Shown here: positions 14,227 to 46,796 of the stretch, one piece after another
Layout: each line of letters starts with the position of its first letter
Position numbering within the stretch: position 1 is the first letter of the stretch
NCBI GenBank assembly: GCA_964572155.1
Contig: CAZNDZ010000002.1
Location: 211,089 to 275,088 of the forward strand
Source: an uncultured Planctomycetales bacterium
Lineage (GTDB): Bacteria > Omnitrophota > Gorgyraeia > Zapsychrales > Fredricksoniimonadaceae
Length of the DNA stretch: 64,000 nt
Direction: 5' to 3'
Position numbers and translations under genes: made by a program
The notes under the pieces: generated by a model
Databases searched by the model: none
What the model was told of the DNA's origin: nothing
What the model saw: only the letters and a program-made list of their open reading frames with translations

Positions 14227-14249
14227 CACACACGCTCCTTGATTAAAAA

Positions 14250-14341: not shown

Positions 14342-14367
14342 AATATCCAAAAGTCTTTTTCAAGCCG

Positions 14368-29923: not shown

Positions 29924-30004
29924 ACAGGATCCTCCATATTGAATTATATAATATATTAATTATATAGGAGGAATGGGTTTGTTGAAGTGAAAAAGTGGAA
30001 ATTT

Positions 30005-30349
30005 TTATGTGGCGTACTTCATGAGATATTTTTGCAGTGCGCTAATTACCACCTGATTTAATGATATTTTCTTTTCTTGTGCGTACATATAAACCAAGCG
30101 ATGCAACTCTTCACCAGTGCGAATATTAAAAGAACCTTTAAATGGCTTTTCAGGTATAATGTTTTTCTTCTTACACGTTTCTAAATAATCAATGACAGCC
30201 GTTTCAAAAGATTTTCTTAAAGAAGCAACATCATATCCTTCATAGCTAACTAAACCCTTAATCTGCTCCACCTTCCCATAAAAACATTTATCATCATCAC
30301 TATAATGAACAGAACCATAATATCCTTTATACTCCATCATGTCTTTCAT
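30005..30349 (-). CDS. hicB: HicB-family antitoxin
   Basis: 114 aa with N-terminal RNase-H-like HicB fold (YKGYYGSVHYSDDDKCFYGKVEQIKGLVSYEG) and C-terminal DNA-binding tail. Overlaps hicA by 4 bp. Confidence 0.75.
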   Translation of the reverse strand: MKDMMEYKGYYGSVHYSDDDKCFYGKVEQIKGLVSYEGYDVASLRKSFETAVIDYLETCKKKNIIPEKPFKGSFNIRTGEELHRLVYMYAQEKKISLNQVVISALQKYLMKYAT

Positions 30350-30591
30350 AAGAGATTTCCTTCATTTAGTATTTCTATAACTTGATCAATCTGATACATT
30401 TTTAATATTTTGCTTGGATGAGGCTCATGCAAAATAATTAAACCATATTTTTCATGCATGAATTTTCTTCTAGAACCATTACCGTAAAACTCCTCGTAAC
30501 CAAAATGCCTTAACAACCTACACACCTCTTCCCATTTGAAATCTTTTGGCCTGCTCTTAATCCTGTGAATTAATTTCTGTATTTGACTCAT
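30346..30591 (-). CDS. hicA: HicA-family mRNA interferase toxin
   Basis: 81-aa YcfA/HicA-like protein (FKWEEVCRLLRHFGYEE...HEPHPS). Confidence 0.75.
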   Translation of the reverse strand: MSQIQKLIHRIKSRPKDFKWEEVCRLLRHFGYEEFYGNGSRRKFMHEKYGLIILHEPHPSKILKMYQIDQVIEILNEGNLL

Positions 30592-30618
30592 TTATTAGTT
30601 TATCACATTTCTGTTATT

Positions 30619-30640
30619 TTGCAACTGTATATAGTTGCAA
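30619..30640. promoter_or_regulatory. palindromic operator candidate upstream of hicAB (TTGCAACT-n6-AGTTGCAA)
   Basis: Perfect 8-bp inverted repeat 28 bp upstream of the hicA start. Confidence 0.5.
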
Positions 30641-30647
30641 AAGCTAG

Positions 30648-31013
30648 TTATTTTAATCTAAAAAACGCATTCTTAATGTGTGTTATTTCTTTGGCCCTAT
30701 CCTTCATCAAAATTGAGACCACATCGAATCTGCTTAAGATGGCGACCGTGCCGTGTTTGTATTTCATGTACACTTGTGCTAGTTTGATCAGGCGTTTTTG
30801 TTTGTGGTAGGTGACGGATTCGAAGGGTTGGCCGTATTGTGTTGAGAAACGGGTTTTGACCTCCACAAACACGAGCACTCCTCCGTCTCGAGCAACTATG
30901 TCGATTTCACCTAATAAGCATCGAAAATTTTGTTCGATGATCTTAAATCCCTTTGAGTGCAAATATTCACACGCGGCTTGCTCGCCTATCTTTCCAAATG
31001 ATACATTGGTCAT
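30648..31013 (-). CDS. yraN: YraN-family (UPF0102) predicted PD-(D/E)xK endonuclease
   Basis: 121 aa (GEQAACEYLHSKGFKIIEQNFRCLLGEIDIVARDGGVLVFVEVKTR). Last gene of the long overlapping T4SS/pilus gene run. Confidence 0.75.
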   Translation of the reverse strand: MTNVSFGKIGEQAACEYLHSKGFKIIEQNFRCLLGEIDIVARDGGVLVFVEVKTRFSTQYGQPFESVTYHKQKRLIKLAQVYMKYKHGTVAILSRFDVVSILMKDRAKEITHIKNAFFRLK

Positions 31014-32131
31014 AAGCCTCCCATTGCTTTAAAACGTTCTTGGGCTTTGCTTTCTTCAAGTGTTCGAAGCTGCTCTTCTTTGGCTTGATTGAGCATGTGG
31101 TCAATCACAATGGCATAATCGCTTATATCTTTTAATTTATCTGTAAGGGAATCTTTTTCTTGTTGTAAATAGGTGATACCTTTTTGGATAATATTCTTGT
31201 AAGCATCTTCCAAGATGGGATGATCTTTATAGCGGTTGAGCCATTCTAATGCTTCATTATATTGGTCGATGGCTTGACTAATGGCACGTTGGGATGCAAT
31301 CGCTTGCACATGATTTAGACGATCAGCATCATTAAGCGTAAGTAAAAAAATGAAGTCTACAGATGTAAAAGGCCTATTAGGTTGGGACAAACTTTCTAAC
31401 AGATCCGTGGCTACTGTCTTTTGATGCTGATATGTTGAAAGCGCATTGTTAATTGTCGTGATATTCGTGTCTTTATATGCTTTTAAGACATGTCCAATCC
31501 TTTTGGATGGGCCGACTAAAAATATTGCCCCACTCTCAACTCGCCAAACAGGCAAGATGGATAGAATGTTTTCCTTCTTAGCGCCTCGAAGATTGAAAAG
31601 GTTAAATAACTTTTCAAAAAGATTTGGCGCATTTACATATTCAAAATCTTTAAAGGCGGCATTGGCTTGACAACTTTTTAATAAGCTGTCTAAATCGTTT
31701 TTATATGTTCCCCTAAAGAACTTCTCCTGAACACAATTATAGATAGCTTCTTTGCGTAGCATATTTAGATCGTGACGATTATTATCTTCCAAGTCTTTTA
31801 AACGATCGTACGTTGTATTAAAACGCAAATATGACAATGTTTGGAAATGTTTAAATACATCTGCCTCCGCTGGCGCGCCATATTCCCAAAGTAGTAAGTC
31901 AGAGGACTTTAAATTTTGACGATGCGTTGTTGCACTTAAATCATCGATGGATTTCTTAATTTCTAAATCTGGATCAATACTCCATGTCATCAAGGGCTTA
32001 ACGACAGATTTCTTATACGCATATGGATCACCTAATGCCGAGGTCAAATCATGATCTGTTTTATCGCTTTGAAATATATCTGCCATGGCATTGGATTGCA
32101 GGATCAGAATTAATAATATTACGTGCATCAT
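31010..32131 (-). CDS. secreted hypothetical protein in the T4SS/pilus cluster
   Basis: 373 aa with a signal peptide (MMHVILLILILQSNAMA). Translationally coupled on both sides. No family recognised. Confidence 0.45.
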   Translation of the reverse strand: MMHVILLILILQSNAMADIFQSDKTDHDLTSALGDPYAYKKSVVKPLMTWSIDPDLEIKKSIDDLSATTHRQNLKSSDLLLWEYGAPAEADVFKHFQTLSYLRFNTTYDRLKDLEDNNRHDLNMLRKEAIYNCVQEKFFRGTYKNDLDSLLKSCQANAAFKDFEYVNAPNLFEKLFNLFNLRGAKKENILSILPVWRVESGAIFLVGPSKRIGHVLKAYKDTNITTINNALSTYQHQKTVATDLLESLSQPNRPFTSVDFIFLLTLNDADRLNHVQAIASQRAISQAIDQYNEALEWLNRYKDHPILEDAYKNIIQKGITYLQQEKDSLTDKLKDISDYAIVIDHMLNQAKEEQLRTLEESKAQERFKAMGGL

Positions 32132-32445
32132 TTAGTTGGAGCCTCAATTAACCTTGTAACGGCTTCTTGAGCTTTTTTAAGTTGATCCATCTTCTTTTGT
32201 TGCCAATCTAAGTACGCTTGTGCATTTGCTAGACTTGGGTCGTTAAGCAGATTGATCACGACTTGAGGTGTTGTTTTTGGCCAATCTAAAATATGCTCTT
32301 TTTTCTTAAATGGTTTCTTTTTATCGACCTGAAAATATTCAACGGGTTCCAGCTTAAAGAAACTATTTGCCAATAGCGTCGAAGGCAACAGCATCACCAA
32401 AAATATTACAGCGATGTTGGGTCGGGAATTGCGGTTTTGCAGCAT
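32128..32445 (-). CDS. small secreted hypothetical protein in the cluster
   Basis: 105 aa with a signal peptide. Overlaps both neighbours. Confidence 0.4.
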   Translation of the reverse strand: MLQNRNSRPNIAVIFLVMLLPSTLLANSFFKLEPVEYFQVDKKKPFKKKEHILDWPKTTPQVVINLLNDPSLANAQAYLDWQQKKMDQLKKAQEAVTRLIEAPTK

Positions 32446-33110
32446 TCTCTAAACCTCCAATAAACCCACAGATACTTTCCGGCAGGATCAACATGATCAT
32501 TTTCCCATAAACGAGCATCTGTGCCTGGAGCCATGCACATAAGCTTATTTGGCTCTAACATTTGCACTTTATCACGGACTGGATCAACAACAAAACCCGC
32601 GGCACTGATCCCTCTCAAGGAAATCAATGCAGATGAAACCCCTGGGCTATAATGGTTGATAAATCCTGTCCTTGGATAAAGCGGCCCCCAGTTACCAATA
32701 AAATATGACGCATTATTTACGGTTGCTCTGCGCCAATGTTCTTGATTAAACTCCGATAAATACCTTATGCCCATTGTTGTGCTTAATAGCGATGAACATA
32801 AAACAGCTTGTTGTATTTGTTTCAACGGGAAATCATAGACATGCACTTCATTAAAACGTAGGTTTCCTCCGTTTAAAGCGCCTAAACTAGATTTGCTTGC
32901 GATCGTACTCATGATAAAAGTTGGCTCATAATATGAGATTCTAATGCCTGGAACATCACCAACCATGCAGGGACCGTATTGTTTTAATTGGGTGCACTGC
33001 ATATCGATCTTGGTAATCGCATGACCAATGCGCGCCACCTCACCTTGAATATCCGTAACAGCAGCGAATGCGTTTGATCCGAACAACATGAGAAAAAGAA
33101 TATGGATCAT
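32406..33110 (-). CDS. periplasmic Cys-containing protein, candidate short TraU-like F-type T4SS component
   Basis: Signal peptide. Several blocks resemble F-plasmid TraU as recalled from memory (ISYYEPTFIM ~ IGYWEPMAL; IRYLSEFNQEHW ~ IAYLSEIDPTW; conserved Cys). 234 aa, versus about 330 aa for TraU. Confidence 0.35.
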   Translation of the reverse strand: MIHILFLMLFGSNAFAAVTDIQGEVARIGHAITKIDMQCTQLKQYGPCMVGDVPGIRISYYEPTFIMSTIASKSSLGALNGGNLRFNEVHVYDFPLKQIQQAVLCSSLLSTTMGIRYLSEFNQEHWRRATVNNASYFIGNWGPLYPRTGFINHYSPGVSSALISLRGISAAGFVVDPVRDKVQMLEPNKLMCMAPGTDARLWENDHVDPAGKYLWVYWRFRECCKTAIPDPTSL

Positions 33111-33988
33111 ATTTTCATAATAAAAGCCAAGGCATAAAACGGCGGAACATTATAATCTGCTGCAACGGTATGTGTATGCCCTTGCCCCCCTCCCGTCCTT
33201 CCCGTTCGCGGGATAGGACTAAACATGCTGGCATGACCGCCTGGATTACTTCCGTACAATCCTTTATTGCTAATTAAATCAATTGAAACATTTGGATTCT
33301 CCTCGTGATCATGTGAAGGTATTTCAGAAATTGTTAAAACATGACTTCCCGTTAAGCCCGTATGATCATGACTGACACTGCCACCAGTTTGATTTAAAGC
33401 CCCCATGATATTTGTTTTAGCAAAACCTTGGTCATCTTGCCTAGCACCTACTATAAACTTATCTCTTAAATCCGGCGTACCATTATTGCCGTCGCATAAG
33501 ATCCACCCAATGGGTATATCTGCAATAGTGCCTGACCAAGCAGCAATCACACCAGCGGCGATGATATTACGATCACTAACGCCAATCATGCTGCTGATGC
33601 TACTTCCCTCAGATGACGCTTGAGACAAACGTGCCATCAACATTCCTGTCAGATTCACTGGAACTTGAGTTGTGACCGTCATGGTTTTTGATGCAAATGA
33701 TGCCTGATATGCATGATTCCAAGGATTCCTTAATGACCATAAGGGGCTTAAATAGCCCTCTGTTTGTAATTGCTCCAAATCATTAGGCCACCGACGATTG
33801 TCAGTATAATATTTCTGAGCGGCTGTTTGGATGATCCCAACCTCAGTAATGGTTTTCTCGCCGGCTTTTATTTCAATAGCCCGCACCGCCATAGGCATCA
33901 ACGCAGATGTGAGCAATGCGATGATACCCATGGCTACGGCTAATTCAATTAAACTGAATGCTTTTTTATTTAGAATGTGACGGTCCAT
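33107..33988 (-). CDS. prepilin-type minor pilin fused to a C-terminal phage tail-collar domain (putative adhesin pilin)
   Basis: Class III signal (KKA|FSLIELAVAMGII, Glu at +5). GspG-like PWNHAY motif. C-terminal tail-collar-like sequence (GWILCDGNNGTPDLRDKFIVG...SHDHTGLTGSHVLTISEIPSHDH...PPFYALAFIMKI). Confidence 0.7.
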   Translation of the reverse strand: MDRHILNKKAFSLIELAVAMGIIALLTSALMPMAVRAIEIKAGEKTITEVGIIQTAAQKYYTDNRRWPNDLEQLQTEGYLSPLWSLRNPWNHAYQASFASKTMTVTTQVPVNLTGMLMARLSQASSEGSSISSMIGVSDRNIIAAGVIAAWSGTIADIPIGWILCDGNNGTPDLRDKFIVGARQDDQGFAKTNIMGALNQTGGSVSHDHTGLTGSHVLTISEIPSHDHEENPNVSIDLISNKGLYGSNPGGHASMFSPIPRTGRTGGGQGHTHTVAADYNVPPFYALAFIMKI

Positions 33989-34419
33989 GTTGAACTTGTA
34001 TCGTCATAGGCAACCTTAGTTGCGCTATTGTTAAAATAATTGGTTAATTTATCCGCCTCAGTTTTTGCCAAACTACTCAAGGAAATATCAAATCGCGTTT
34101 TATCTGCCGTATTGGCCACCACGTTATAATCCCCTCCCCACGGATTCGTCTTACTAGCAACAAAACCATCCGGCAATACTTTCGCGGTCTTAAGAACATC
34201 AACGCTCATGCCAGCATAATTGATATTACCCGACGCTAAATAACTCTCCGCCGCTGTCCTTAAAGTTTGAACACTATTTGCCGCTGACTGAACGCGGGCA
34301 TTGTCTCTTAAACCTGATGATACTGAAATACTTAAAATGAGCACTGTTAACACAGCCAGTCCTATGGCTAGTTCTACTAAAGAAAAACCTTCTTGTGATG
34401 CGATGCTTCTTCTTTTCAT
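33970..34419 (-). CDS. prepilin-type major (pseudo)pilin, GspG-like
   Basis: Leader MKRRSIASQEG|FSLVELAIGLAVL (G-1, F+1, E+5). GspG-like NPWGGDY motif. 149 aa. Confidence 0.75.
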   Translation of the reverse strand: MKRRSIASQEGFSLVELAIGLAVLTVLILSISVSSGLRDNARVQSAANSVQTLRTAAESYLASGNINYAGMSVDVLKTAKVLPDGFVASKTNPWGGDYNVVANTADKTRFDISLSSLAKTEADKLTNYFNNSATKVAYDDTSSTWTVTF

Positions 34420-34433
34420 TTTCCTCTCCTTTT

Positions 34434-35630
34434 TTACCCCCCCGCGATCTGTGTCAAACTCCCATACACAGGAATTAAGAACGCGAAGGCAATGATGATT
34501 AAAAACACTCCACCCAACAGCAATAATGCTGGTTGAATGAGCATGACCATTTGATCGACGCGGTCATGTACGCGCTTATTAAAATATCCTGATAGGTTTG
34601 AAACATATTCCGGTAGTCGTGTCATTTCTTCTCCACGACGAATAGTAAATATCACAACAGAGGAAAAAATCGGATCTGTTTTGAGAGCTTCCCATAACGG
34701 CATACCTCCAAACAAATAATCGCGACATTGATAAACATGACGGCTAATGATGCTCACATTTAACGCGTTTAAATCATTGATGCATTTGATCAATGGCACT
34801 CCGTTGCGCAATAAAATTGATAGATTTAGAAAATAAAACGCTAAGTCTGTTTCTTTCTTGATGCGGCCCATCAATGGGATGCGATATATCACCATGTCAT
34901 AAATACGCTGATTTTTTCTTAATACGAAAATGCCTACAGTCAATAGAATCACCGGAATAACGAGCAATAAAATAAAATGTTTTTGTAAGCATACACTCAT
35001 GGCAATCACAATGCTGGCCGTCCCTTTAAGGCGTGCAGTATCTGGTAATAATTGTTTTAATTTCGGAATAACGTTTAGACCCACATACATCATCACGCTT
35101 ATTAATAAACAAAATACGATCGATGGGTATGTCAAAGCTTCGTGTAATTTATGACGGATCTCTGCTTGCCTTTTAAAATACTGCGCTAAAAGTTGATACG
35201 ACGCTTCTAACTTTCCACTCTGTTCGCCGCTTTTGATGGTCAAAATAACGATCCATGGAAAAGTATTGGTTTTTCTAAAAGCATCCGCCAGACTTAAACC
35301 CTCCTCAATCTTATCTCTTAAAACATCAATAACATGAGCTAAAGTTACATCTTGAGTAGAATCCCTCAGTGACAGCAACATCTGCGTTAAACTTAATCCT
35401 GTTTGCTGCATATTGCTTAAATCTTCAAAAAATGCCGTTAAGGTCTTTACGGATAACCGTTTCATCTGATAAAACTTTTCGAAAAATAAGACGAAATCCG
35501 GCTGTAAATCGATCAACTCCAATTGATGCACCTTTATGTATGCCATTATTTCTTGTTTGGTTGCTGATAACGAACCACGGACATCTTGACCTTGAGCATT
35601 TAATGCCTGATATTTCCAATGTTTGATCAT
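34434..35630 (-). CDS. GspF/PilC-family inner-membrane platform protein
   Basis: 398 aa with two cytoplasmic repeats and 3 TM helices, typical of the T2SSF family. Overlaps the ATPase gene by 4 bp. Confidence 0.75.
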   Translation of the reverse strand: MIKHWKYQALNAQGQDVRGSLSATKQEIMAYIKVHQLELIDLQPDFVLFFEKFYQMKRLSVKTLTAFFEDLSNMQQTGLSLTQMLLSLRDSTQDVTLAHVIDVLRDKIEEGLSLADAFRKTNTFPWIVILTIKSGEQSGKLEASYQLLAQYFKRQAEIRHKLHEALTYPSIVFCLLISVMMYVGLNVIPKLKQLLPDTARLKGTASIVIAMSVCLQKHFILLLVIPVILLTVGIFVLRKNQRIYDMVIYRIPLMGRIKKETDLAFYFLNLSILLRNGVPLIKCINDLNALNVSIISRHVYQCRDYLFGGMPLWEALKTDPIFSSVVIFTIRRGEEMTRLPEYVSNLSGYFNKRVHDRVDQMVMLIQPALLLLGGVFLIIIAFAFLIPVYGSLTQIAGG

Positions 35631-37165
35631 CCAAGCACCCGCCTTGCTTCGTCAGGGGTTGTTTTACCCTCTTTGATCATCTGCAAAACCTGCGTCTCCA
35701 TCGATGTGGCAACACCCTGTGTTTTCAAATACGCTTTTAAACCGGCCATATTCTGCGCTAATAGTAATTCCTCGATGGTGTCATCACAATCAATGATCGA
35801 TGCCACAACACTACGCCCCTTAAACCCACCCAAACAATACTTACAACCTTTTGTACAATGCGGACATACCAACCGCACCAAGCGCTGTGTGATCACCATA
35901 GAAATATTGGATGCCATATAGGCAAATGGCACACCTAAATCATGAAGCCTTAAAAATGCATCTATGCCTTGCTTAGCGTGCAGAGTGGCAAAAACTTTAT
36001 GACCTGTCATGGACGCGCGTATGGCTTCTTGCGCAGTTTGGGCATCGCGAATTTCACCAATGAGAATGATGTTGGGATCATGGCGTAAGAAAGCACGAAC
36101 GGAATTGCCAAAATTAATATCTCTTTTATCATTGGTTTGTACTTGCGTGATTAAGGCATGATGCATTTCAACGGGATCTTCAATGGTCAGAATCTTGCGC
36201 TCAATGCTTTTCATGAAATTTAACATGGCATACAGCGTCGTGGTCTTCCCACATCCTGTAGGCCCAACAATCAATACCATCCCTTCTGGCTTCTTTAATT
36301 TCTGTTCGATCGTATACCACTGCTCTGATGTATATCCCAAAGACACCAAAGGGATTGAAGCCTTCTGCTTATCTAAAAGCCGCAAGACCAGTGAACTTCC
36401 CTGCACACAGGGAATATGTGATACACGGACATCCACCACGGCATGATGATGCGTATATGTGAAACGCGCGTCATGAAATTTGCCAAAATCACTGATCGTA
36501 ACATCCGCTTTATGAAAGATGATATTGACCAACCGTTTTTGTAAGTCTAACTTTAAGGTCTGATAAAAATGCAAGATCCCATCAATGCGAAAACGTACTT
36601 CGACAGCTTTTAAGGACGGCTCTATATGAATATCCGTAGCCCCTTTCGAGAGCGCGTCATTAAAACATTGCTCTACCCACTGTGGTAGATCATCCCCTCG
36701 TGTATCATCATGTGATTTCCATACCTCATCATTATTACTTAAATCTTCTATGGCTTTACGCAACGCCGCCTCAGGCGCTAACATAAATTGTGCTTTGGTA
36801 TTGATCTTGGCTTCAATGGCATCGGTGGTTGCCATGTCGTCACTAAAAGCCATGATAAAAACAATGCCCTCATGCGCCTTGGCAGGAAAAATCATATGCT
36901 TCACCATGAAATCAACGCCTAACAATTTAACCATTTCTTGCGCGGCTTCATATCGCCCCTCATAGACACCCCATCCAACTTGTTTGGCTAAGGCATGCAC
37001 AATTTGATCGTCGCTGATAAAGTCATAATCCTTTAACACTTTCCCGATGCGTTCATGCCCATTATTCTTCTGAACGGATAAACAAAAATTTAACGCCTTA
37101 TCATTGATTAATCCTTGTTCTTTTAGAATATGACCAATGCGTTGATTGTGCATTTTACCTCCCAA
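35627..37165 (-). CDS. GspE/PilB-family secretion ATPase with N-terminal MshEN/GSPII_E_N domain
   Basis: Walker A (GPTGCGKTTTLYAML), Asp/His boxes, tetracysteine motif (CPHC...C..C). N-terminal IGHILKEQGLINDKAL domain. Confidence 0.85.
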   Translation of the reverse strand: MGGKMHNQRIGHILKEQGLINDKALNFCLSVQKNNGHERIGKVLKDYDFISDDQIVHALAKQVGWGVYEGRYEAAQEMVKLLGVDFMVKHMIFPAKAHEGIVFIMAFSDDMATTDAIEAKINTKAQFMLAPEAALRKAIEDLSNNDEVWKSHDDTRGDDLPQWVEQCFNDALSKGATDIHIEPSLKAVEVRFRIDGILHFYQTLKLDLQKRLVNIIFHKADVTISDFGKFHDARFTYTHHHAVVDVRVSHIPCVQGSSLVLRLLDKQKASIPLVSLGYTSEQWYTIEQKLKKPEGMVLIVGPTGCGKTTTLYAMLNFMKSIERKILTIEDPVEMHHALITQVQTNDKRDINFGNSVRAFLRHDPNIILIGEIRDAQTAQEAIRASMTGHKVFATLHAKQGIDAFLRLHDLGVPFAYMASNISMVITQRLVRLVCPHCTKGCKYCLGGFKGRSVVASIIDCDDTIEELLLAQNMAGLKAYLKTQGVATSMETQVLQMIKEGKTTPDEARRVLG

Positions 37166-37682
37166 TCATGATGATCTTTTCTTGACCTTGTTCATCTGTG
37201 ATAACCATTCTGTCGTCGGAAATACTCTTGACCTTATAGGCGCTATCAATAAACTGCCCTATTTTGAAATACGTCACACTGCCATTTATTAGCACAATCG
37301 CCTGTTTTTCAGCACCTAATTGAACAATGCCATTTAATTTGATGGGATCTGACGCAACGTCCTTTATGTTCACTTCAGAGCTTTGTTCATACTTAGAGAG
37401 TTTTGATTGAATTTCTTTTTGCTTCAATTGCAAATCCGCACGCATTACATCCAGATCCAATAATTTTATTTCTCGTAATCGCTCATTTTCTTGATTAATA
37501 AATGCACGCATCGGATCCTCAGGTTTTTTCTCAGGAACAACGCTTTCAACAGTCTTAATAGAGTTACTTTCTTCTACTGTCTTGTCAGGATCTTGATCCA
37601 ACATAGATATTTCTTTGGCATGTATCTGAATCTGCCAAATTAAGAAGATACTGACGAAACAACAACATTTCTTAAACCCCAT
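37155..37682 (-). CDS. PilP/GspC-like bitopic protein (secretin-interacting HR-like beta domain)
   Basis: N-terminal TM, coiled coil, C-terminal domain (IKLNGIVQLGAEKQAIVLINGSVTYFKIGQFID...KVKSISDDRMVITD) resembling PilP/GspC HR domains. Confidence 0.5.
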   Translation of the reverse strand: MGFKKCCCFVSIFLIWQIQIHAKEISMLDQDPDKTVEESNSIKTVESVVPEKKPEDPMRAFINQENERLREIKLLDLDVMRADLQLKQKEIQSKLSKYEQSSEVNIKDVASDPIKLNGIVQLGAEKQAIVLINGSVTYFKIGQFIDSAYKVKSISDDRMVITDEQGQEKIIMIGR

Positions 37683-39213
37683 AAACCCCTCCTATGATTT
37701 GACATAACGCATTTTTACATTCAATCGATGTAATACGGATTGGATAAAACTCTTGCCATGAATTCATCAAGTCTAAAATGCGAACTCGTTCTGACGTAGA
37801 TGACACCTGATAAAACGAAAGTTTAAACTTGATGGCATTCATACCTAAATATACTGGATCATTCGTAACTATGTCGACGATCTCTAAATTCACTTTTAAC
37901 CCATAGGTGCTCGCATCATGTTTCAATCGACTCATAAAAGCGGCATAATTCAAGGAGGATTTCAAAACAACGTCATCTTTTAATAGCATTAATACGTTAA
38001 TCATTGTTTGTATATCTTTAGACCCATCATTTTTTGTAAGGGCCAATCGCAAGCGTTGACCTAGTTGATCATTAACCTTCTCATTTGTCACAATAGCGTC
38101 TTGCCATATGTCATGGAGCATCAAATCTCCTTGATACTCATAGACATTGGGAAGTATCATGGCGTTTAAATCCCATGCTCCATCTGTAACGTGATTAAGA
38201 TTAAATTCTTTTACCTCAAACCCGTAAGGCAAACGTTGGATGAGATCAAGATAAATGTCCTCGGCATTCTTATAAGATATGGATTTTAAGTACGCGCTTA
38301 ATTTTGTTTTGTACGCTAGAGCAAGGGCTTGTTTTATTTGCTGCTCCTTTTGTTGATGAAAAGCTTGAGCAGCCTTGGCTTGATGATCCAAATACATGCC
38401 AGTGCCCCATATACCACCACATGTAAAGATACCCCCCATCAAAATACCCAGATACGTGAGCCGTTGAGTAAACAGGGCATGTCGTTTTTTTCTAGCTAAA
38501 TCTTTAGGCAGGATAAAACTATGAGGAAATTTTGCGGTTTTTAATCCTTCAAGAACAGGATACGCAACATCTAAGTGCAAAACCTCATCTTGACTGACTA
38601 ATTTGAGTTTAATCAATGCGCTTAACCACTCTTTATTATTGCAAATAAGCACATAGCCCATGTCTTTGTCACTGCCTGCACTATAAACGCTCCAAGTTCT
38701 CTTAATCTCATGAGCCATATACTCCATATCGCGCATGGCAATGTGACGGGCATCGCTGAATTTAGAACCGCTAAAAATTGTCACAATGGCCATTGTTTTG
38801 ATATCATCAACAACAATCACTGCCTTCGTATCATTAAGCAAATCTTTAGATCTTAAGAAAGCGCGTAAAGCCACTTGATAAGGGACAAGCGCGCTCGGCG
38901 TAATGGGCTTGAAATATTCATAGATTTCTTCAATCTTAGATTTATTAACAGCCATCAACTGCACGACATTGGCAGATAACCACTCCTGTAAAACGAGATA
39001 CTCATCATTAAAAACCTGCGACATCAATGTTGTTTTTTGAGGCATCATGCTTGGTTCAATGGTCAACTGTTTTACTTGAACATGCAGACAAGCTACAGTT
39101 GCTTGCTTAAACGTGGATTTATAATTTCTGATAAATTCATCTTTTCCATAAGAACCAACATTCCCGTTAACCTCAAGGAATAACCATTCATCAAATAAGG
39201 CGTGCAACATCAT
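37672..39213 (-). CDS. GspL-like / PilM-PilN-fusion-like assembly protein (cytoplasmic actin-like domain, TM, periplasmic domain)
   Basis: 513 aa with a single TM near residue 265 (LTYLGILMGGIFTCGGIW), a roughly 250-aa cytoplasmic N-domain and a roughly 230-aa periplasmic C-domain. Positioned between the secretin and ATPase genes. Confidence 0.4.
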   Translation of the reverse strand: MMLHALFDEWLFLEVNGNVGSYGKDEFIRNYKSTFKQATVACLHVQVKQLTIEPSMMPQKTTLMSQVFNDEYLVLQEWLSANVVQLMAVNKSKIEEIYEYFKPITPSALVPYQVALRAFLRSKDLLNDTKAVIVVDDIKTMAIVTIFSGSKFSDARHIAMRDMEYMAHEIKRTWSVYSAGSDKDMGYVLICNNKEWLSALIKLKLVSQDEVLHLDVAYPVLEGLKTAKFPHSFILPKDLARKKRHALFTQRLTYLGILMGGIFTCGGIWGTGMYLDHQAKAAQAFHQQKEQQIKQALALAYKTKLSAYLKSISYKNAEDIYLDLIQRLPYGFEVKEFNLNHVTDGAWDLNAMILPNVYEYQGDLMLHDIWQDAIVTNEKVNDQLGQRLRLALTKNDGSKDIQTMINVLMLLKDDVVLKSSLNYAAFMSRLKHDASTYGLKVNLEIVDIVTNDPVYLGMNAIKFKLSFYQVSSTSERVRILDLMNSWQEFYPIRITSIECKNALCQIIGGVYGV

Positions 39214-40586
39214 TGATCTCTCCTTGGCGTCATAAAGATAATCAACTCCGTCTTATTATTCTTATGCTGACTGTACTCAAAGAATTTACCTAAGAGCGGG
39301 ACTTTTGAAAGGATCGGTACGCTTTGTTTAGAGTTTTCTTTTGTTGTGGTGATCAACCCGCCAATAGCAACGGTCTGACCTTCTTTTAACTTCACCATGG
39401 TATTGATAGACTTCGTGGTGGTTTGCGGCGCTTCAATGAGCGTATTGCCTGAGGTGATCGAACGAATATTATCTATGCTGGTTACAACCGGCGTGACCGA
39501 TAAATATATATCGTCGCCAACGATATTTCCCAAAAGGCGCATGGTCACGCCTTCTTGAACTTGGGATGTTGAGATTGACGTCACGGTGCCTGTTTGAGTT
39601 GTTTCAATGGATGAATGGTCAACGAAACTTTGAGTAGACCCCACTTGAATAACAGCAACCTGATTATTTAGAATCCTTACCCTAGGTTGCGAAACAACTT
39701 CCACCTTGCCTTGTTTAGCCAAAGCATCGATGGCTAATTTGAATTTCGAACCATCCGCGTAAAACTTTAAGAAATCACCACTTGTAAAATGATTCGATGC
39801 AAAATTACTAGACAATCCTAAACTATTAAACTTCTTTAAATCATCAATCAACACATTCCAATCAACCCCAAAACGATTCTCTTGGTTTAATGTGACTTCA
39901 ACAACCTTCACATCAACTTCAATTTGAACAGAAACTTTTTTGTTTAAATCTTTAAAATAGCGTCGAATGCTCTCTAATCTAAGCGGCACATCGGTCACAA
40001 TGACCATGCCTGCGGGCTTATTAACGGATATTTTGGCTGTAGATGACGCTAATGACTTAACATTATTTATCACATCATCCCAAAAGGACAATGCTGTCAA
40101 TTGACTGCCAACCACGATCTTTGTACCAAGTTTAACATGTTGACTTTGGGTGCTGTTGGATGAGTTGTCTGAGGATTCCACAAAAGATTCATTGCTAGTC
40201 ACATCATTGAAATCCTGCGTGATGGGCGGTAAAAGCACGCGAAAGATTTTGGTTTGTTCTGCTAAAATGATCAATTGATGATCTTCGATCTTGTAGCCAT
40301 ATCCAAGTGTATACAGCAATCGACTCAACACTTTGTCAATGCTCACATCTTTCACGTCGATACTGACCTTCTTATCTTCGACATTAACCCCAAGCAAAAC
40401 ATCATAACCCATAGATTGCGCAATGGGTTTCAACACCGACGTCAATGGCAAATCCATCACATGCAGTGTTACCACTTGCTGTAATCCTTTGGACGGCGTT
40501 GTTACATCGTTACTCGCCCATGCTCCTTGGCACGCTTGTAATGTCAGACACATCATCAACGTTATTATTTTCAGAAGGTTTTTCAT
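39210..40586 (-). CDS. secretin (GspD/PilQ/PilN family), possibly a lipoprotein
   Basis: C-terminal secretin domain (VKLKEGQTVAIGGLITTTKENSKQSVPILSKVPLLGKFF...IIFMTPR). N-terminus MKNLLKIITLMMCLTLQAC-QGAWA|S has both a lipobox-like Cys and an AxA SPase I site. Confidence 0.8.
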   Translation of the reverse strand: MKNLLKIITLMMCLTLQACQGAWASNDVTTPSKGLQQVVTLHVMDLPLTSVLKPIAQSMGYDVLLGVNVEDKKVSIDVKDVSIDKVLSRLLYTLGYGYKIEDHQLIILAEQTKIFRVLLPPITQDFNDVTSNESFVESSDNSSNSTQSQHVKLGTKIVVGSQLTALSFWDDVINNVKSLASSTAKISVNKPAGMVIVTDVPLRLESIRRYFKDLNKKVSVQIEVDVKVVEVTLNQENRFGVDWNVLIDDLKKFNSLGLSSNFASNHFTSGDFLKFYADGSKFKLAIDALAKQGKVEVVSQPRVRILNNQVAVIQVGSTQSFVDHSSIETTQTGTVTSISTSQVQEGVTMRLLGNIVGDDIYLSVTPVVTSIDNIRSITSGNTLIEAPQTTTKSINTMVKLKEGQTVAIGGLITTTKENSKQSVPILSKVPLLGKFFEYSQHKNNKTELIIFMTPRRDQ

Positions 40587-40848
40587 ACGACTCCTTTTGG
40601 GTTGCTATGGGATAAGCCCCTGCTTTGGCCCATTGCCCTGGTTTAATGAGTACCAATTCTTTGTGTTCTGGGATAAATACACCATTTTCAATATGCGCTG
40701 GAACACCAACATCTTGTACAATTGGCTCATTCCAATGGTAGAACGGCACGTTGCTGATTTTGGAAGCCTCATGTTTTACCTTTTCTTGCGCAGCGCAACC
40801 CATACACAAAACACCATATAACAATAAAAACATATACCTAAAGACCAT
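40510..40848 (-). CDS. small secreted/lipoprotein-like protein upstream of the secretin (pilotin candidate)
   Basis: Signal peptide ending in Cys (MVFRYMFLLLYGVLCMGCAAQ). About 112 aa from the internal Met. Translationally coupled to the secretin. Confidence 0.35.
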   Translation of the reverse strand: MVFRYMFLLLYGVLCMGCAAQEKVKHEASKISNVPFYHWNEPIVQDVGVPAHIENGVFIPEHKELVLIKPGQWAKAGAYPIATQKESYEKPSENNNVDDVSDITSVPRSMGE

Positions 40849-43318
40849 AAGGGTGCTCCTTTGCGCATAATTGTATTGCTTCCATAAAATCACCTTCGCA
40901 TTCCTCTACTTTCTTTATTAAATATTCATTATTACGGGGCTCAGAATTTGCCACCCAATATAAAAATGGATCCGGCACAAGACGCACAACACCACAAGAG
41001 TTTTCTGTAATCACTAACCCTTCAGAAAACTTACCCTTCACGGTTTCGAGCGTCTTAAGCAACTTAATTTTCTGATCATCTAAGGATAAGCTGCTTTTAA
41101 GCAAGTCAATGACAGCAGGTTCTTGTTTAAGAAAAATCTTATTTGAGGCATTGGCAATAATGGCAATACCACTTTCAACACGGGTTAAATCTGCAATTTC
41201 TTGTGTGATGGCAATGGTTGAACAGCGGTACTTGCGAAATGTCTTAAAGGCATTGGTAATAAAATCCGCCGTATTTTTTACTTTTAACAGGGACCACGCT
41301 TCATCAATGAGCAAATATTTTCTTTTAGAGCGCATCTCCTGATGAGCTACAAAATTTGTCATAAAGAACATGAGATTAAGCAAAACAGCCACTTGTAAAT
41401 CAGGGTAAGAACTTAAGTTTGCTAACTCAAAAGCAATAAAACGGCTATTCATTTGGAATTGATTGGGCCCATCAAAGAACCCACCGTATGGTCCTTTCTT
41501 AGTAAACGGCGTTAACCGCAAAGCCAGCGTTGGCCCCATTAAAGAATTAATGCCACAACTGCTGTTAAATTCATTGTCATTTAAAATTGACGTCACATCT
41601 GATAAGAATACTTCTTGGCGTTCATCTTTCTGGCGATATGCCACCATGATGGCTTGGTGCAGGAGGCCCTCTTCTTCTCTTGTCAGACGATAACGTTCAT
41701 CTCCACCACTTGCCATTTGTGACAACAATGATAGTAAAAACGATAAATTCTCAGGGGTCGGCGGATGGGCAAAAGGATTAAATGTAACAGGATTATTCAA
41801 ATCAAAAGCAACATATTGTCCTTTCAAGATTTGACATAATTTCTTATATGAATCGCCTTTATCTAAAATAAAAAAATGACTCCCTAAACGATCGCTTTGA
41901 AGGATAAAATCATTGATAAAGAAACTTTTCCCAGCTCCTGAAGCTCCCACGACAACCCCATGGGGGTTGATGTTAGAATCAAACATATCAAAATTAACAG
42001 CTTGGCCTCGACGATTGAAGTACATTTGAGCAAGGGTTCGCGTTCCTTGATAAGCTCCAAAGACAGGCAACATATCAGCAGCATTGTTAGATAACAACCT
42101 TCTGGAGCGACGGACAAAGTTTTCGTAATATGGATCGAAATTAAGAGGCAAACACGTCAAGAATAATGATGCCCCTATTAAATCCTCCTTCATGCCTTCA
42201 CATTGAAGTCGATTAAGGCCATTGATAATCTGATCACTCTGAGCTTCTACATCTTGTGCTTGAAAACCTCGAACAATCCAATGAAAGCGGGCCTGCACGA
42301 TGCGTTGATTACCCTGATACATTTCTTTAATCACATCATCAATCTCGTTCTTCTTCGCAACAGATTCAATAGATTGATCCCCTAACCAATTTTCTTTATG
42401 CATGAACGTAAAATCTTTTTGAAACTTTAACTGATCCAAAGATTTCTGTGATGATGGAACCGTAAGGTTAACCACCATCATCAACTCAACAGCTTGATCC
42501 AATAAATTAAAACTTCCTCCTTCATAAAATTCTTTACAAAACATCCCTATATGAGTTTCTATAGGCATTTCCTTTAAACTCATCAGACACATATGTTGCT
42601 CTTCAAAGAAAAACCCTTTTGCATTCGCGGATGGACTATTAAAAAGCACTTGATCACGAATATTCTCTTCCTCATTAAACCGATGATTAGGCGTTTTTAA
42701 AGAACGTTTTGGATTTAAAATCTCGTAAAGAAAAATTGTTAAGTCTTCTGCAGATAATGGTTGAACCTTAGTATGAACCGAATTAAATAATCCTTCGATT
42801 AAGGCAATATGTTGTTTAAAAGCATTTTGATGCGCTAATAATTCGCTTTCAACCTGCACGCCATTACTTCTTTTCCAAATAGGGAAAAATCTTACTGCAA
42901 CATAAATGTCAATATGCTTTAGAACAAATTTATGGTTATTATGCTCAAACAAACCGTGTTGATGGGTTTCTATATATGAAGAACGATTCTTTAAAAAAAC
43001 AGAAGTAACATTCTCATCTTCTTTGTAATTTGCATAATTCTTAAGGGACTCATTTATATTAGACTTTGTTCTTAGGATAAGTTGGCATGCAAAGTTTTCA
43101 GATGGCAGACGAGCTAAGAAGTTTTGCCATTGGATGATCATCATATTTAAATCACCTTCTGTTTTCCCTTCAATATCCGTCACCCCCACCTTCCAAATTT
43201 TCCCAAGGCTACCGTCGGATAAAATGCACATATCGTTGGAGTATTCAATATAGGGTAGCAAGTCGACAAAACTTAAGCCCTCGTCAAATAATTGCTCTAT
43301 GTCTTTATGTCGCAGCAT
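40838..43318 (-). CDS. traC: VirB4/TraC-family type IV secretion ATPase
   Basis: 826 aa. Walker A (VVVGASGAGKSFF). Hallmark Walker B (YLLIDEAWSLL) of the CagE/TrbE/VirB4 family. Position after the traV-like gene, as in F. Confidence 0.8.
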   Translation of the reverse strand: MLRHKDIEQLFDEGLSFVDLLPYIEYSNDMCILSDGSLGKIWKVGVTDIEGKTEGDLNMMIIQWQNFLARLPSENFACQLILRTKSNINESLKNYANYKEDENVTSVFLKNRSSYIETHQHGLFEHNNHKFVLKHIDIYVAVRFFPIWKRSNGVQVESELLAHQNAFKQHIALIEGLFNSVHTKVQPLSAEDLTIFLYEILNPKRSLKTPNHRFNEEENIRDQVLFNSPSANAKGFFFEEQHMCLMSLKEMPIETHIGMFCKEFYEGGSFNLLDQAVELMMVVNLTVPSSQKSLDQLKFQKDFTFMHKENWLGDQSIESVAKKNEIDDVIKEMYQGNQRIVQARFHWIVRGFQAQDVEAQSDQIINGLNRLQCEGMKEDLIGASLFLTCLPLNFDPYYENFVRRSRRLLSNNAADMLPVFGAYQGTRTLAQMYFNRRGQAVNFDMFDSNINPHGVVVGASGAGKSFFINDFILQSDRLGSHFFILDKGDSYKKLCQILKGQYVAFDLNNPVTFNPFAHPPTPENLSFLLSLLSQMASGGDERYRLTREEEGLLHQAIMVAYRQKDERQEVFLSDVTSILNDNEFNSSCGINSLMGPTLALRLTPFTKKGPYGGFFDGPNQFQMNSRFIAFELANLSSYPDLQVAVLLNLMFFMTNFVAHQEMRSKRKYLLIDEAWSLLKVKNTADFITNAFKTFRKYRCSTIAITQEIADLTRVESGIAIIANASNKIFLKQEPAVIDLLKSSLSLDDQKIKLLKTLETVKGKFSEGLVITENSCGVVRLVPDPFLYWVANSEPRNNEYLIKKVEECEGDFMEAIQLCAKEHPYGL

Positions 43319-43892
43319 CGTATTTCCTTTTGTTTTGGGTAGTTTGCTTTATTGGGAAGCCCATTGGACTTTTAACTTTTTGATCTTCTTCTTTCATGCT
43401 TAATAACTCTCTAATCTTTTCAAAAAGAGATATGATTTGGCTGTCATGTATATTAAATCTTCCTTCTACACGTAATTCGAGTTCTTGAATCTTTTGTGCT
43501 AATTCTTTATGGGTTAGAATTAAATCTCTTAATTTGACAAAAATACGCATGATTTGTAGATTAACTTCAATGGCTTTCTCACTGTTAAGTACTGAAGATA
43601 GCATTGCTATCCCAAGCTCTGTGAATGCATATGGTGGTTTTCTAGCGCCTCCCCATCTTGATATCGCAAAATGCGATATCAAGTTTCTCATCTCATCTTG
43701 AGTTAATTGAAACATACAGTCTTCAGGAAACCTTCTTGTATTTCTTTTCACTTGCTCATTTAATCTAAAGGTTTCAACTCCATACAAAATCGCCAAATCC
43801 CTATCCAACATAACTTTTTTGCCGCGTATCAAAAAAATTCTCTCTTGTATAACTTCTATAGAGACATCACTTACTTTGATATTTTTCTTCAT
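43305..43892 (-). CDS. ORF6N (KilA-N-related) domain DNA-binding protein
   Basis: Classic ORF6N sequence (RIFLIRGKKVMLDRDLAILYGVETFRLNEQVKRNTRRFPEDCMFQLTQDE). Start taken at MKKNIKV. Occupies the F traR position between traV and traC. Confidence 0.7.
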   Translation of the reverse strand: MKKNIKVSDVSIEVIQERIFLIRGKKVMLDRDLAILYGVETFRLNEQVKRNTRRFPEDCMFQLTQDEMRNLISHFAISRWGGARKPPYAFTELGIAMLSSVLNSEKAIEVNLQIMRIFVKLRDLILTHKELAQKIQELELRVEGRFNIHDSQIISLFEKIRELLSMKEEDQKVKSPMGFPIKQTTQNKRKYDAAT

Positions 43893-44256
43893 TTTTTTCT
43901 CCTTTGCCTTCTTTTCCAGGAACAATGATAGGTAAAATTGAGTCTTGTATTTCATCCTCAATAAACCACTTTGGCCCTCGAATCATAAGATAGACCCAAT
44001 GACCAGCAACTAGGACACCGGAATCTTGATCTGACTTATGGTCTGGGATCCATACTTTTTTAACGACTGGCGGCTCAATAACGGGAACATATGGCTTTAC
44101 ATAGCCAAATACTTTTTGTTCCTTGAATTGGTCCAATTGATTTATTTCAAGATCCGGCATTAATACTTTTCTTTCTGCTGTTTCTTTGACGAGTCGGTGT
44201 GCGCAACCGCTAGTTAATAGAAGACAACTTATTAAAATTAGTGCGTAATAGGCCAT
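43867..44256 (-). CDS. small lipoprotein, TraV/VirB7-like
   Basis: Signal peptide with lipobox-like LLTSGC. 129 aa. Position between the traB-like gene and traC, as for traV in F. Confidence 0.45.
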   Translation of the reverse strand: MAYYALILISCLLLTSGCAHRLVKETAERKVLMPDLEINQLDQFKEQKVFGYVKPYVPVIEPPVVKKVWIPDHKSDQDSGVLVAGHWVYLMIRGPKWFIEDEIQDSILPIIVPGKEGKGEKNEEKYQSK

Positions 44257-45307
44257 TGATTCTCACTCCTTTTTGAACGACAAAATATACACTATTGCCG
44301 CTGGGTATATGGACAGCAGGGATGATGTATTCTGCTTGTTTTTCGTAATATTGGGATAAATCGCTGGAACTTTTGGCAAGGCCACTAAACAAGGCATGCC
44401 GGCTCACATCGCCTGTCACATTACGTTCTACCTCGCCAAAGCGACTTTGTGATGTGGTGATTTCATTGTCAGCTAAAGCTGTTGAACCACCTGACATAAA
44501 TCCCCCTAAGAATGTTACGGCTAAAGCTTTGCCAGTATTTCTAACAACTTGCCCTTTGATCCCTAATTCACCATAAGCGTCGGTGACATAGCCAATGTCT
44601 TGTTCGTGTTCAAAGACTTGGCCATTGGGTAAAACAAACGATATGGCAACAATTTGAATAAGCGCTCGCTCTGAATTTATATCCCCAACGGCTTTGCCCA
44701 AGACAAAAGCACCCTTTAATGGAACTCTTGTTTTATTTGGGCCATAAAAAGCCTCATCCAATTTGATTAAGACAGGTAATGGACTGTTTAAATCTGAAGA
44801 AGCATAAACACCAGTTAGTAATGTCCCTTTACAAAATGATCCAATCGGTAAATAAACAAATTCTTTAGCTGAATCTAATTCTTTGATCGGTGCGACAGCT
44901 AGCTCAAATGATGTAGTTATTGATGTATCCTGATTAGATGTATTTGCAGCTATTATTTCTCGAATATTATTTAACGAATCAACCACTATTTTTTGGTCTT
45001 TGTTTGACTGTTCTGTTGCTTGTTTGATGGACTGTACTTGTTCTTCCATAGCTTTGATCCTATCTTCAAAATCGTAGTAACTTTTTTGAAGACCTTTCAT
45101 GAATTCCAGCTTCTCAGTGTCCCCAACGGCTATGCCCATGGCATCTTTTGATTGTTCTTTTAAAATAGGGATATCTTTCTTTTGAGTTAGATCTGATTGA
45201 GCAAATACAAAGACACAACATATAACAGCAACGACACCCAAAACCCCATAGGAGACCAATGGATCTTTTTTAAACTGTGCTTTTAGTTTTTCGAGGTAAT
45301 CATCCAT
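44210..45307 (-). CDS. traB: TraB/VirB10-family protein
   Basis: Short cytoplasmic N-terminus, single TM (VLGVVAVICCVFVFA), coiled-coil linker, C-terminal TrbI-like beta domain (GELGIKGQV...). Position after the traK-like gene. Confidence 0.55.
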   Translation of the reverse strand: MDDYLEKLKAQFKKDPLVSYGVLGVVAVICCVFVFAQSDLTQKKDIPILKEQSKDAMGIAVGDTEKLEFMKGLQKSYYDFEDRIKAMEEQVQSIKQATEQSNKDQKIVVDSLNNIREIIAANTSNQDTSITTSFELAVAPIKELDSAKEFVYLPIGSFCKGTLLTGVYASSDLNSPLPVLIKLDEAFYGPNKTRVPLKGAFVLGKAVGDINSERALIQIVAISFVLPNGQVFEHEQDIGYVTDAYGELGIKGQVVRNTGKALAVTFLGGFMSGGSTALADNEITTSQSRFGEVERNVTGDVSRHALFSGLAKSSSDLSQYYEKQAEYIIPAVHIPSGNSVYFVVQKGVRINGLLRTNFNKLSSIN

Positions 45308-46794: not shown

Positions 46795-46796
46795 GA

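Follow-up and report, generated by a model that had tools for sequence, protein, structure and literature searches.

A type IV pilin fused to a phage-type fibre-tip domain forms a large Omnitrophota family and may act as a pilus-tip adhesin

Modular pilins, through which simple filaments gain new functions, consist of an N-terminal pilin module, a short linker and a C-terminal domain that is not specific to pili, and a catalogue published in 2021 comprises 264 such architectures; its authors argue that modular pilins are most probably exposed at the pilus tip (Raynaud et al., PMC8179133). The modular pilins PilB (pilin plus vWA) and PilC (pilin plus lectin) of Streptococcus sanguinis, for example, are minor pilins and predicted tip adhesins in which a small pilin carries a foreign domain. 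Here we describe a gene of this kind in a 64,000-nucleotide stretch of DNA (hereafter the window; contig CAZNDZ010000002.1 of assembly GCA_964572155.1) from an uncultured bacterium of the phylum Omnitrophota. The encoded protein, referred to below as the fusion, consists of two modules, a type IV (pre)pilin and a receptor-binding module of the phage-fibre type, joined by a short linker, which is the layout by which Raynaud et al. defined modular pilins. It has the same build as PilB and PilC, but its graft is of the phage or tailocin fibre-tip type, of which all solved relatives are obligate homotrimers, and the host phylum is uncultured.

The fusion also resembles the minor pilins of type IVb (T4b) pili in its layout and gene position. 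CofB of the CFA/III pilus of enterotoxigenic Escherichia coli and TcpB of the toxin-coregulated pilus (TCP) of Vibrio cholerae are tip-located homotrimers (PMC8179133), which shows that three pilin modules can bear one trimeric distal assembly. Both are encoded by a lone minor pilin gene that follows the major pilin gene, and both carry extra C-terminal domains behind their pilin module, as the fusion does. However, no sequence similarity to CofB or TcpB was found beyond the N-terminal helix, and none of their chains is among the PDB profile matches at E ≤ 1. The C-terminal domains are alike in neither sequence nor fold: those of CofB and TcpB are a β-repeat and a β-sandwich that act as adaptors for the secreted proteins CofJ and TcpF and do not themselves serve as variable receptor binders, whereas that of the fusion is a fibre tip. 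A third comparison is offered by PilV of plasmid R64 (IncI1) and of the SPI-7 and PAPI-1 integrative and conjugative elements (ICEs), likewise a T4b-like minor pilin that has a variable C-terminus and is encoded among conjugation-type genes. In R64 PilV, this variable C-terminus sets target specificity. As in the case of R64 pilV, cofB and tcpB, the fusion gene directly follows a major pilin gene, here of the PilS/bundlin-like type. These two adjacent genes are the only prepilin-type genes in the window, and together they form the arrangement known from T4b-type clusters, where a single minor pilin gene lies beside the gene for the major pilin.

The fusion open reading frame (ORF) is a real gene. 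Its 5' end overlaps the end of the upstream major pilin gene by 19 nt and its stop codon overlaps the ATG of the downstream TraU-like gene by 4 nt; these overlaps at both ends make it the middle member of a tightly packed operon. The N-terminus of the protein is a class III signal peptide, MDRHILNKKA/FSLIELAVAMGIIALL, in which FSLIELAVAMG follows the cleavage mark (slash). This region is matched above cutoff by Pfam N_methyl (22.8 bits; cutoff 21.2) and by TIGR02532 (19.8 bits; cutoff 16.3), and the N-terminal methylation/cleavage motif was matched in all 60 of the family members scanned. In an alignment of 60 full-length homologs, Glu15, which corresponds to position +5 of the mature protein, is invariant (60 of 60) and the leader junction K-K-[GA]/F-S-L-I-E-L is conserved. 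AlphaFold2 (AF2), run on the full-length monomer with the 60 homologs, modelled residues 11–135 as a very confident small pilin, with a predicted local distance difference test (pLDDT) score of 89–98 in the blocks covering residues 11–130 and 83 for residues 131–140. The model consists of a hydrophobic α1 helix (residues 13–64) and four strands, giving the pilin fold of an α1 helix packed on an antiparallel β-sheet, and bears out the original prediction of a hydrophobic N-terminal helix with Glu at +5. The pilin module lacks cysteines. Foldseek matched the model to PilA1, PilE and PilA4 at probabilities of 0.97–0.99, and profile matches of the module were to geopilin, PilE and GspG at E = 1e-6 to 1e-3. 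A PWNHAY motif that had been called GspG-like is indeed present at residues 89–94, and N88, P89, W90 and Y94 are invariant or nearly so in the family; the GspG matches are limited to the N-terminal helix, however, and no alignment links the motif to GspG, so we regard it as a resemblance and not as a sign of kinship.

The pilin module also occurs with other C-termini. Among 82 representative proteins matching it at E ≤ 1e-10, 31 carry the fibre-tip domain and 15 are pilin-only, and the remaining 36 have another C-terminal extension that is unmatched by the hidden Markov model (HMM) of the fibre tip. Some of these extensions are still collar-like (ending ...NPYVSVNFIIKY) and some of the proteins are 1,190–1,833 aa long. 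It seems to be a carrier of a general kind, on which tips can be exchanged. At E = 1e-15 to 1e-7, for instance, it heads the much longer proteins P0169 (1833 aa), P0179 (1310 aa), P0180 (1190 aa), P0244 (1445 aa) and P0142 (524 aa), whose C-terminal regions are unrelated.

Judged by sequence comparison, the homology of the C-terminal domain to the receptor-binding tips of phage and tailocin fibres is far beyond chance. The domain has the conserved scaffold GxIxAWSGxIxxIPxGWxLCDGxNGTPDLRDKFIVGA ... PPFYALAFIMK and matches the PHROG tail families phrog_5795 (E = 2.4e-25) and phrog_8469 (E = 2.2e-14) as well as phrog_1800, 'tail collar fiber protein' (E = 6.7e-13). When the family profile was compared with the PDB, it matched Photorhabdus Pvc13 (9QGO, E = 1e-21), gp60 of Pseudomonas phage Pa223 (9NXK, E = 1.4e-18) and C24 of a Bizionia prophage (6OV6, E = 2.6e-15); these entries contain three chains each, and the matches span profile positions of about 119–289. 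A tblastn search with the domain returned 164 phage records, annotated mostly as tail fibre or tail protein, and fold searches with the C-domain model returned tail fibres only. Profile comparison with the solved members thus makes the fusion homologous to T4 gp37, C24, Pa223 gp60 and Pvc13 over about 150 residues, with the common blocks WxG..IP.GW.LCDG..GTPDLR and PPYYxLxFIxK, the HxH motifs, and a variable centre that corresponds to the head. Fibre tips are attached through an N-terminal shaft to the phage baseplate or tail. In the fusion, whose tip domain is among the shortest, a pilin module with its class III signal peptide stands in place of the shaft, so that the carrier would be a bacterial pilus.

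The best-covered phage match to the C-domain lies in BK063672.1, Caudoviricetes sp. vir515 (2347–4450; host given as Methanosarcinales), with 35% identity and E = 2e-13. It falls in one of three tandem phrog_5795 'tail protein' genes of this archaeal virus, two genes downstream of the tape-measure gene. Attacks on other cells are reported for Velamenicoccus archaeovorus, a described Omnitrophota species that preys on a Methanosarcinales-related methanogen; the correspondence with the host of the virus could be a coincidence.

The original prediction had named the C-terminal domain a tail-collar/microcystin-dependent-protein domain and had tied this to a significant Collar match. Here it needs revision: Pfam Collar (PF07484) scores 14.9 bits on the fusion against a threshold of 24, matching only positions 1–22 of its 57, and the middle of the model is missing from the family (CDGxNGTPDLR). 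The weak Collar match nevertheless recurs at E ≤ 0.01 in 52 of 60 family members (best 6.6e-5), and Gp10_C, also sub-threshold on the fusion, recurs in 12 of the 60. Neither model was taken to identify the domain, for which the PHROG, PDB-profile and family-wide evidence was used instead, and by these routes the homology to phage fibres is solid. On its sequence features, the domain seems better described as a long-tail-fibre tip (collar-needle-head type, with HxH motifs) than as a Pfam Collar or microcystin-dependent-protein domain. We take the tail-collar domain to be IPR011083 of the modular-pilin catalogue. There, it occurs only in two singleton, more complex architectures, while the bimodular pilin-collar form is absent and the main text is silent on it (PMC8179133). 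The form is probably missing because Pfam Collar misses the fusion family.

The solved relatives also suggest how the domain might be assembled. The structure papers describe Pvc13, Pa223 gp60 and C24 as trimeric, intertwined fibres. In the PVC fibre, it is the C-terminal region of Pvc13 that binds the host; the tip of Pa223 'closely resembles the C-terminal tip of T4 gp37' (paper behind 9NXK), and C24 is presented as a putative receptor-binding tip of a long tail fibre. C24 and gp37 are alike in their collar, needle and head domains, and the needle holds metal ions (PMC12028318). In the fusion, HxH occurs three times (residues 207, 226 and 271), and two of these motifs align with HxH motifs of the solved trimeric fibres. 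In both AF2 monomer runs, that of the full-length protein and one of the C-domain alone (115 sequences), the C-domain was of mixed confidence, with a pLDDT of about 90 in the conserved core and low values in needle and head parts.

Within this conserved scaffold, one segment is hypervariable. In the 60-homolog alignment, the frequency of the most common residue is 0.78–0.90 at residues 151–180 and 281–293 but 0.14–0.24 at residues 231–260, where indels are also numerous. The insert formed by residues 229–266 falls into at least 14 discrete cassette types among the 60 sequences, and its type is decoupled from the relatedness of the pilin modules. For example, the window protein and P0003 are 72% identical in the pilin module and differ in insert type, whereas P0024, with 36% identity to the window protein in the pilin module, has the same type; likewise, P0084 and P0114 share 95% identity in the pilin module and have different inserts, whereas P0037 and P0045 share 34% and have inserts of the same type that are 88% identical. 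Such decoupling points to replacement of cassettes by recombination, as in phage fibres. By analogy with the layout of gp37 and C24 (PMC12028318), the insert is presumed to be the distal 'head' that contacts the receptor, and a conserved scaffold with a hypervariable, recombining insert is what would be expected of a specificity determinant.

We also looked for the alternative C-terminal cassettes and inverted repeats that a shufflon would leave nearby, and these did not materialise. A search for sfx-type/Rci-type repeats over positions 30000–37000 gave short, chance-level matches only, the C-domain HMM detected no second C-domain copy or silent cassette in the window, Shufflon_N did not match the fusion even at E ≤ 10, and Pfam scans of the window proteins returned no recombinase or integrase family. 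A shufflon was accordingly rejected. The fusion thereby differs from PilV, which it otherwise recalls: it varies between genomes by cassette replacement and not within a cell.

A protein search returned 2,933 relatives of the fusion. The best 120 clusters are 269–310 aa long and nearly all cover 94–100% of the query, which puts the number of full-length fusion clusters at 120 or more, and the named clusters among these 120 are nearly all from metagenome-assembled genomes (MAGs) of Candidatus Omnitrophica/Omnitrophota. In species-representative genomes, full-length matches (residues 1–293) are likewise essentially confined to Omnitrophota MAGs, a few of which are labelled uncultured Planctomycetales, whereas matches to the C-domain alone come from many phyla. 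The closest genome match is an Omnitrophota MAG with 67% identity. Homologs are named 'tail fiber protein', 'prepilin-type N-terminal cleavage/methylation domain-containing protein' or 'type II secretion system protein'. The fusion is a large, vertically conserved Omnitrophota family that is not rare and is already present in databases. The claim that it was undescribed therefore holds in part: a literature search, with most subscription papers outside its scope, found no description of a pilin/tail-collar fusion or of a hybrid type IV pilus/F-like cluster, but the family is common and modular pilins as such have been in print since 2021. Genomics papers on Omnitrophota treat type IVa pili, Tad pili and giant proteins and mention neither the fusion nor the cluster that encodes it.

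This cluster (31010–48196, minus strand) is a hybrid in which a complete T4b/MSHA-like pilus block is placed between traC and a traU-like gene of an F-like type IV secretion system (T4SS). In the direction of transcription, the order is TraG_N, TraL, TraE, TraK, TraB, TraV, an ORF6N-domain gene, TraC, a 127-aa gene and the secretin, followed by a 513-aa protein, a PilP-like protein, ATPase, platform protein, major pilin, fusion, TraU-like protein, a 105-aa gene, a 373-aa gene and YraN (Table 1). The tra genes run in the same order as in the F plasmid. No Pfam family matched the 513-aa, 127-aa, 105-aa and 373-aa proteins. The order from the secretin through the 513-aa, PilP-like, ATPase, platform and pilin genes to the fusion recurs in Omnitrophota MAGs at 25–75% protein identity, and in 14 of 21 related loci the major pilin gene is immediately followed by the fusion. 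Among the 17 loci that reach far enough downstream, most were found to carry the 105-aa and 373-aa genes behind the TraU-like gene. The TraU-like protein of the window is short (234 aa, against 250–320 aa in related loci), and its strong Pfam TraU match is confined to the C-terminal 46 residues.

Variations on this gene order were also seen. In a subclade of nine loci (L015–L021, L023 and L024), the gene for an extra pilin of ~156 aa (e.g. L018, 10001–10471) separates the major pilin gene from the fusion gene; the extra pilin is paralogous to the pilin module of the fusion (24–35% identity), and pili of these organisms would have two minor pilins. Locus L025 contains an apparent prepilin peptidase gene about 6 kb upstream of the fusion gene (3892–4884).

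Table 1. Positions in the window of the fusion gene, its parts and the neighbouring pilus and secretion genes
Feature	Position	Strand	Evidence and remarks
Whole fusion gene, modular minor (pre)pilin	33107-33988	-	ATG-to-stop ORF, 293 aa
Class III signal (leader) peptide, residues 1-10, MDRHILNKKA	33959-33988	-	N_methyl, TIGR02532, alignment; predicted cleavage before F11
Pilin module, residues 11-137	33578-33958	-	AF2, Foldseek, profile matches
Short linker, residues 138-145	33554-33577	-	Between confident pilin fold and first conserved C-domain block; boundary approximate
Tail-fibre-tip domain (collar-needle-head type), residues 146-293	33110-33553	-	PHROG and PDB profile matches, fold searches
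Hypervariable insert, residues 229-266	33191-33304	-	Alignment conservation and cassette types
HxH motif 1, H207-D-H209	33362-33370	-	Motif scan; H207 nearly invariant
HxH motif 2, H226-D-H228 in LTISEIPSHDH	33305-33313	-	Aligns with Pvc13 PYHYH and Pa223 gp60 PAHTH; H226 nearly invariant
HxH motif 3, H271-T-H273 in GGGQGHTHT	33170-33178	-	Aligns with Pvc13 GQGHNH, gp60 GQTHNH and C24 PHSHT
Major pilin, 149 aa, leader MKRRSIASQEG/FSLVEL	33970-34419	-	Pfam Bundlin 29.6 bits, PilS 22.1 bits, both above cutoff
Platform protein	34434-35630	-	T2SSF 121 bits
ATPase	35627-37165	-	T2SSE 306 bits
PilP-like protein	37155-37682	-	PilP weak, 1e-3
513-aa protein	37672-39213	-	No Pfam match
Secretin	39210-40586	-	MshL 4e-60; PilN T4b 1e-40, below its cutoff
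TraU-like protein, 234 aa	32406-33110	-	TraU PF06834 46.9 bits
105-aa gene	32128-32445	-	No Pfam match
373-aa gene	31010-32131	-	No Pfam match
F-type T4SS genes TraG_N, TraL, TraE, TraK, TraB, TraV, (ORF6N insert), TraC	40838-48196	-	Pfam

Taken with the structural relatives, this arrangement makes it reasonably likely that the fusion is a tip-located and probably trimeric adhesin, the single minor pilin of a T4b-like pilus, and it probably lets Omnitrophota pili grab a specific target cell. In such a scheme, prepilin peptidase would remove the 10-residue leader, and the hydrophobic α1 helix with Glu5 would dock the pilin module into a filament built from the product of the adjacent major pilin gene. 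The first filament layer would most likely consist of three copies, as in CofB and TcpB, because the C-terminal module would clash with subunits placed above it and because its phage relatives are homotrimers held by HxH motifs and metal; the cap would then show a single trimeric fibre tip at its distal end. The conserved collar and needle would serve as scaffold and the insert as a head whose ligand on the target is a surface glycan or an outer-membrane protein, with specificity shifting through recombinational swaps of the head cassette and not through a shufflon. Binding by the pilus could finally bring the target cell to the co-encoded F-like T4SS. Of all this, the analysis shows the architecture of two modules, the homologies, the gene order and the mosaic cassettes; processing, placement at the tip, trimerisation, metal binding, the class of ligand and the link to the T4SS are proposals. 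The original idea of a tip adhesin comparable to R64 PilV is upheld in its two modules, its gene position and its variable insert, without the shufflon and with a function that we infer.

Several observations weigh against this reading. Residue -1 of the leader is Ala (KKA/FSL), whereas most homologs have Gly and several have Ala. To our knowledge, Ala is the sole substitution at -1 reported as tolerated by prepilin peptidases, so that the leader, although recognised above cutoff, is less canonical than had been claimed, without its membership of the (pre)pilins being called into question. Neither a prepilin peptidase (PilD) nor a retraction ATPase is encoded in the 64-kb window. Fibres of the Pa223 type are highly conserved, and their own authors doubted a receptor-binding role for them. 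Finally, in four loci (L008, L012, L013 and L025) the fusion is found together with the TraU-like, 105-aa, 373-aa and YraN genes but without adjacent pilus and TraC genes, which ties it to T4SS-like genes at least as tightly as to the pilus. The fusion matches at about 10000 in L008, 3784 in L012, 1216 in L013 and 10013 in L025, and the genes upstream of it look like housekeeping genes from their N-terminal sequences.

These four loci give some weight to the main rival idea, which we consider rather unlikely, that the fusion serves mainly the F-like T4SS as a pilin-anchored surface adhesin, stabilising contact with the target in the manner of TraN in mating-pair stabilisation; in a variant of this, it could cap a short pseudopilus that pushes through the secretin. 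Wherever a related locus continues beyond the fusion, a TraU-like gene comes next (17 of 17), and no F-pilin (TraA) family was among the Pfam matches of the cluster. In F plasmids, traC and traU are separated by traW/trbI, and the pilus block occupies exactly this spot. Even so, the pilin module is strongly conserved and its Glu5, which is needed for filament assembly, is invariant; the fusion gene shares its first bases with the end of the major pilin gene, behind which it lies in most loci; and the TraU-like, 105-aa and 373-aa proteins have no characterised function here, with no relatives of the TraU-like and 373-aa proteins found by a PDB sequence search. A role for the T4SS and a place at the pilus tip can be combined and are not mutually exclusive.

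A precedent for such a combination comes from Myxococcus xanthus, whose Kil (Tad) pilus has interchangeable minor-pilin 'Tips' with variable domains for target cells and is tied to a second secretion apparatus (PMC12075869). The likeness lies in a variable pilus tip and a coupled secretion system in an organism that lives off other cells, although a predatory lifestyle of the source organism is inferred here from its phylum (PMC10066038). Kil is, however, a Tad/Flp pilus with multi-protein tips and a partner resembling a type III secretion system, whereas the present cluster has a single fusion pilin, a T4b-like pilus and an F-like T4SS. We can only tentatively suggest that the pilus block and the T4SS form one conserved, chromosomal 'catch-and-connect' machine, in which a trimer-capped pilus with a phage-derived head would define host range and a T4SS without relaxase would move proteins or DNA. 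For Omnitrophota, to which a host-dependent or predatory way of life has been ascribed as a proposal, such a machine could have a central role, and its head cassettes would be exchanged by recombination, possibly with viruses of the same target cells.

That the fusion is instead a PilV-type adhesin of a conjugative element, part of a 'thin pilus' that chooses recipients as in R64, SPI-7 and PAPI-1, appears improbable. T4b-like pilus genes are indeed embedded in tra genes, the C-terminus is variable in a way analogous to PilV, and the best NCBIfam match of the TraU-like protein is the ICE family TIGR03756, albeit far below its cutoff. But Pfam scans found no relaxase, coupling protein or integrase in the 64 kb, there is no tRNA gene at the cluster borders, the GC content of the cluster equals that of its flanks, and the cluster, YraN included, keeps its gene order in MAGs with as little as 25% identity, which speaks for vertical inheritance. 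None of 72,556 plasmids (PLSDB) carries a full-length homolog, and the shufflon elements of PilV are missing from fusion and window alike, as described above. With DNA-processing genes absent and the cluster native-looking and vertically conserved, we disfavour both a plasmid or ICE origin and, with it, the recipient cell that had been proposed as the target. The partial PLSDB matches, going by gene sizes, are to fibre genes of an apparent Afp/PVC-like (contractile injection) locus on Serratia plasmids and not to pilV. One of these is a C-domain match in unannotated 'hypothetical' genes of Serratia marcescens plasmid pQE32 (AP028595.1, 6593–7480). Loci of this type, on conjugative IncI1-typed Serratia plasmids, owe their Afp/PVC-like look to large neighbouring genes and an ATPase.

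Still less probable is that the C-domain acts as a monomeric lectin-like module on the pilus shaft, or that the fusion is a cell-anchored protein that never enters a filament. A place on the shaft would be possible if the linker were flexible (PMC8179133), and the AF2 monomer models are sensible in the conserved core. Yet the linker has only about eight residues, the solved homologs are all intertwined trimers, the HxH motifs are conserved and align with those of solved trimeric fibres, and an obligate oligomer that is modelled as a monomer would be expected to have low pLDDT in needle and head. An artefact, whether a prophage tail-fibre remnant, an assembly chimera or a mis-called ORF, is effectively refuted, since against one homolog that NCBI calls 'tail fiber protein' stand the identical protein on 10 independent public contigs from several sequencing runs, which rules out a chimera, at least 120 full-length clusters with the same junction, conserved synteny, and no phage structural genes among the window proteins scanned against Pfam.

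Seen as a pilus-tip adhesin, the fusion would add to the known modular pilins a ready-made, trimeric, viral receptor-binding graft. What is new is that the grafted module is a viral tip of a kind that is obligately trimeric in all solved relatives, in a large lineage-wide family that diversifies by cassette exchange. With such a graft, the pilus cap would be a homotrimer, and host-range modules of phages would have a direct way of evolving into bacterial adhesins. Omnitrophota are uncultured and are thought to depend on or prey on other cells, few of which have been identified. A specificity determinant that is conserved, easy to recognise and divided into discrete cassette types would offer an experimental handle on these partner cells, since recombinant tips might serve as labels for sorting them out of environmental samples. 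The finding may be only a moderate surprise to pilus specialists, but it suggests a practical route to the partners of an uncultured phylum. It also exposes an annotation gap, as standard domain models miss the family, hence its database names as tail fibre proteins or generic prepilins.

Some further features of the window deserve mention. The ORF6N-domain gene (43305–43961) splits the tra genes between TraV and TraC, and a homolog (52% identity) lies in locus L022 (7667–8689) between the platform gene and the fusion, the usual site of the major pilin gene, which suggests that the ORF6N gene is a mobile insert within the cluster. Toxin–antitoxin-type genes are found on both flanks, namely HicB/HicA (30005–30349 and about 30350–30600) just past YraN, and a HepT-like/NTase-substrate-binding gene (49724–50104) past TraG_N. 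The flanks also carry menaquinone biosynthesis-type genes, seryl-tRNA synthetase and exonuclease VII. A 1134-aa ORF at 50826–54230 has no Pfam domain above threshold and a GC skew of -0.33 to -0.36, against about -0.1 elsewhere, and two more large ORFs, at 2610–5669 (1019 aa) and 12211–14343 (710 aa, TTG start), have no Pfam match. A tRNA-Ser(CGA) gene (14250–14341) lies inside the 5' end of the called 710-aa ORF, which places the true start of that gene further downstream.

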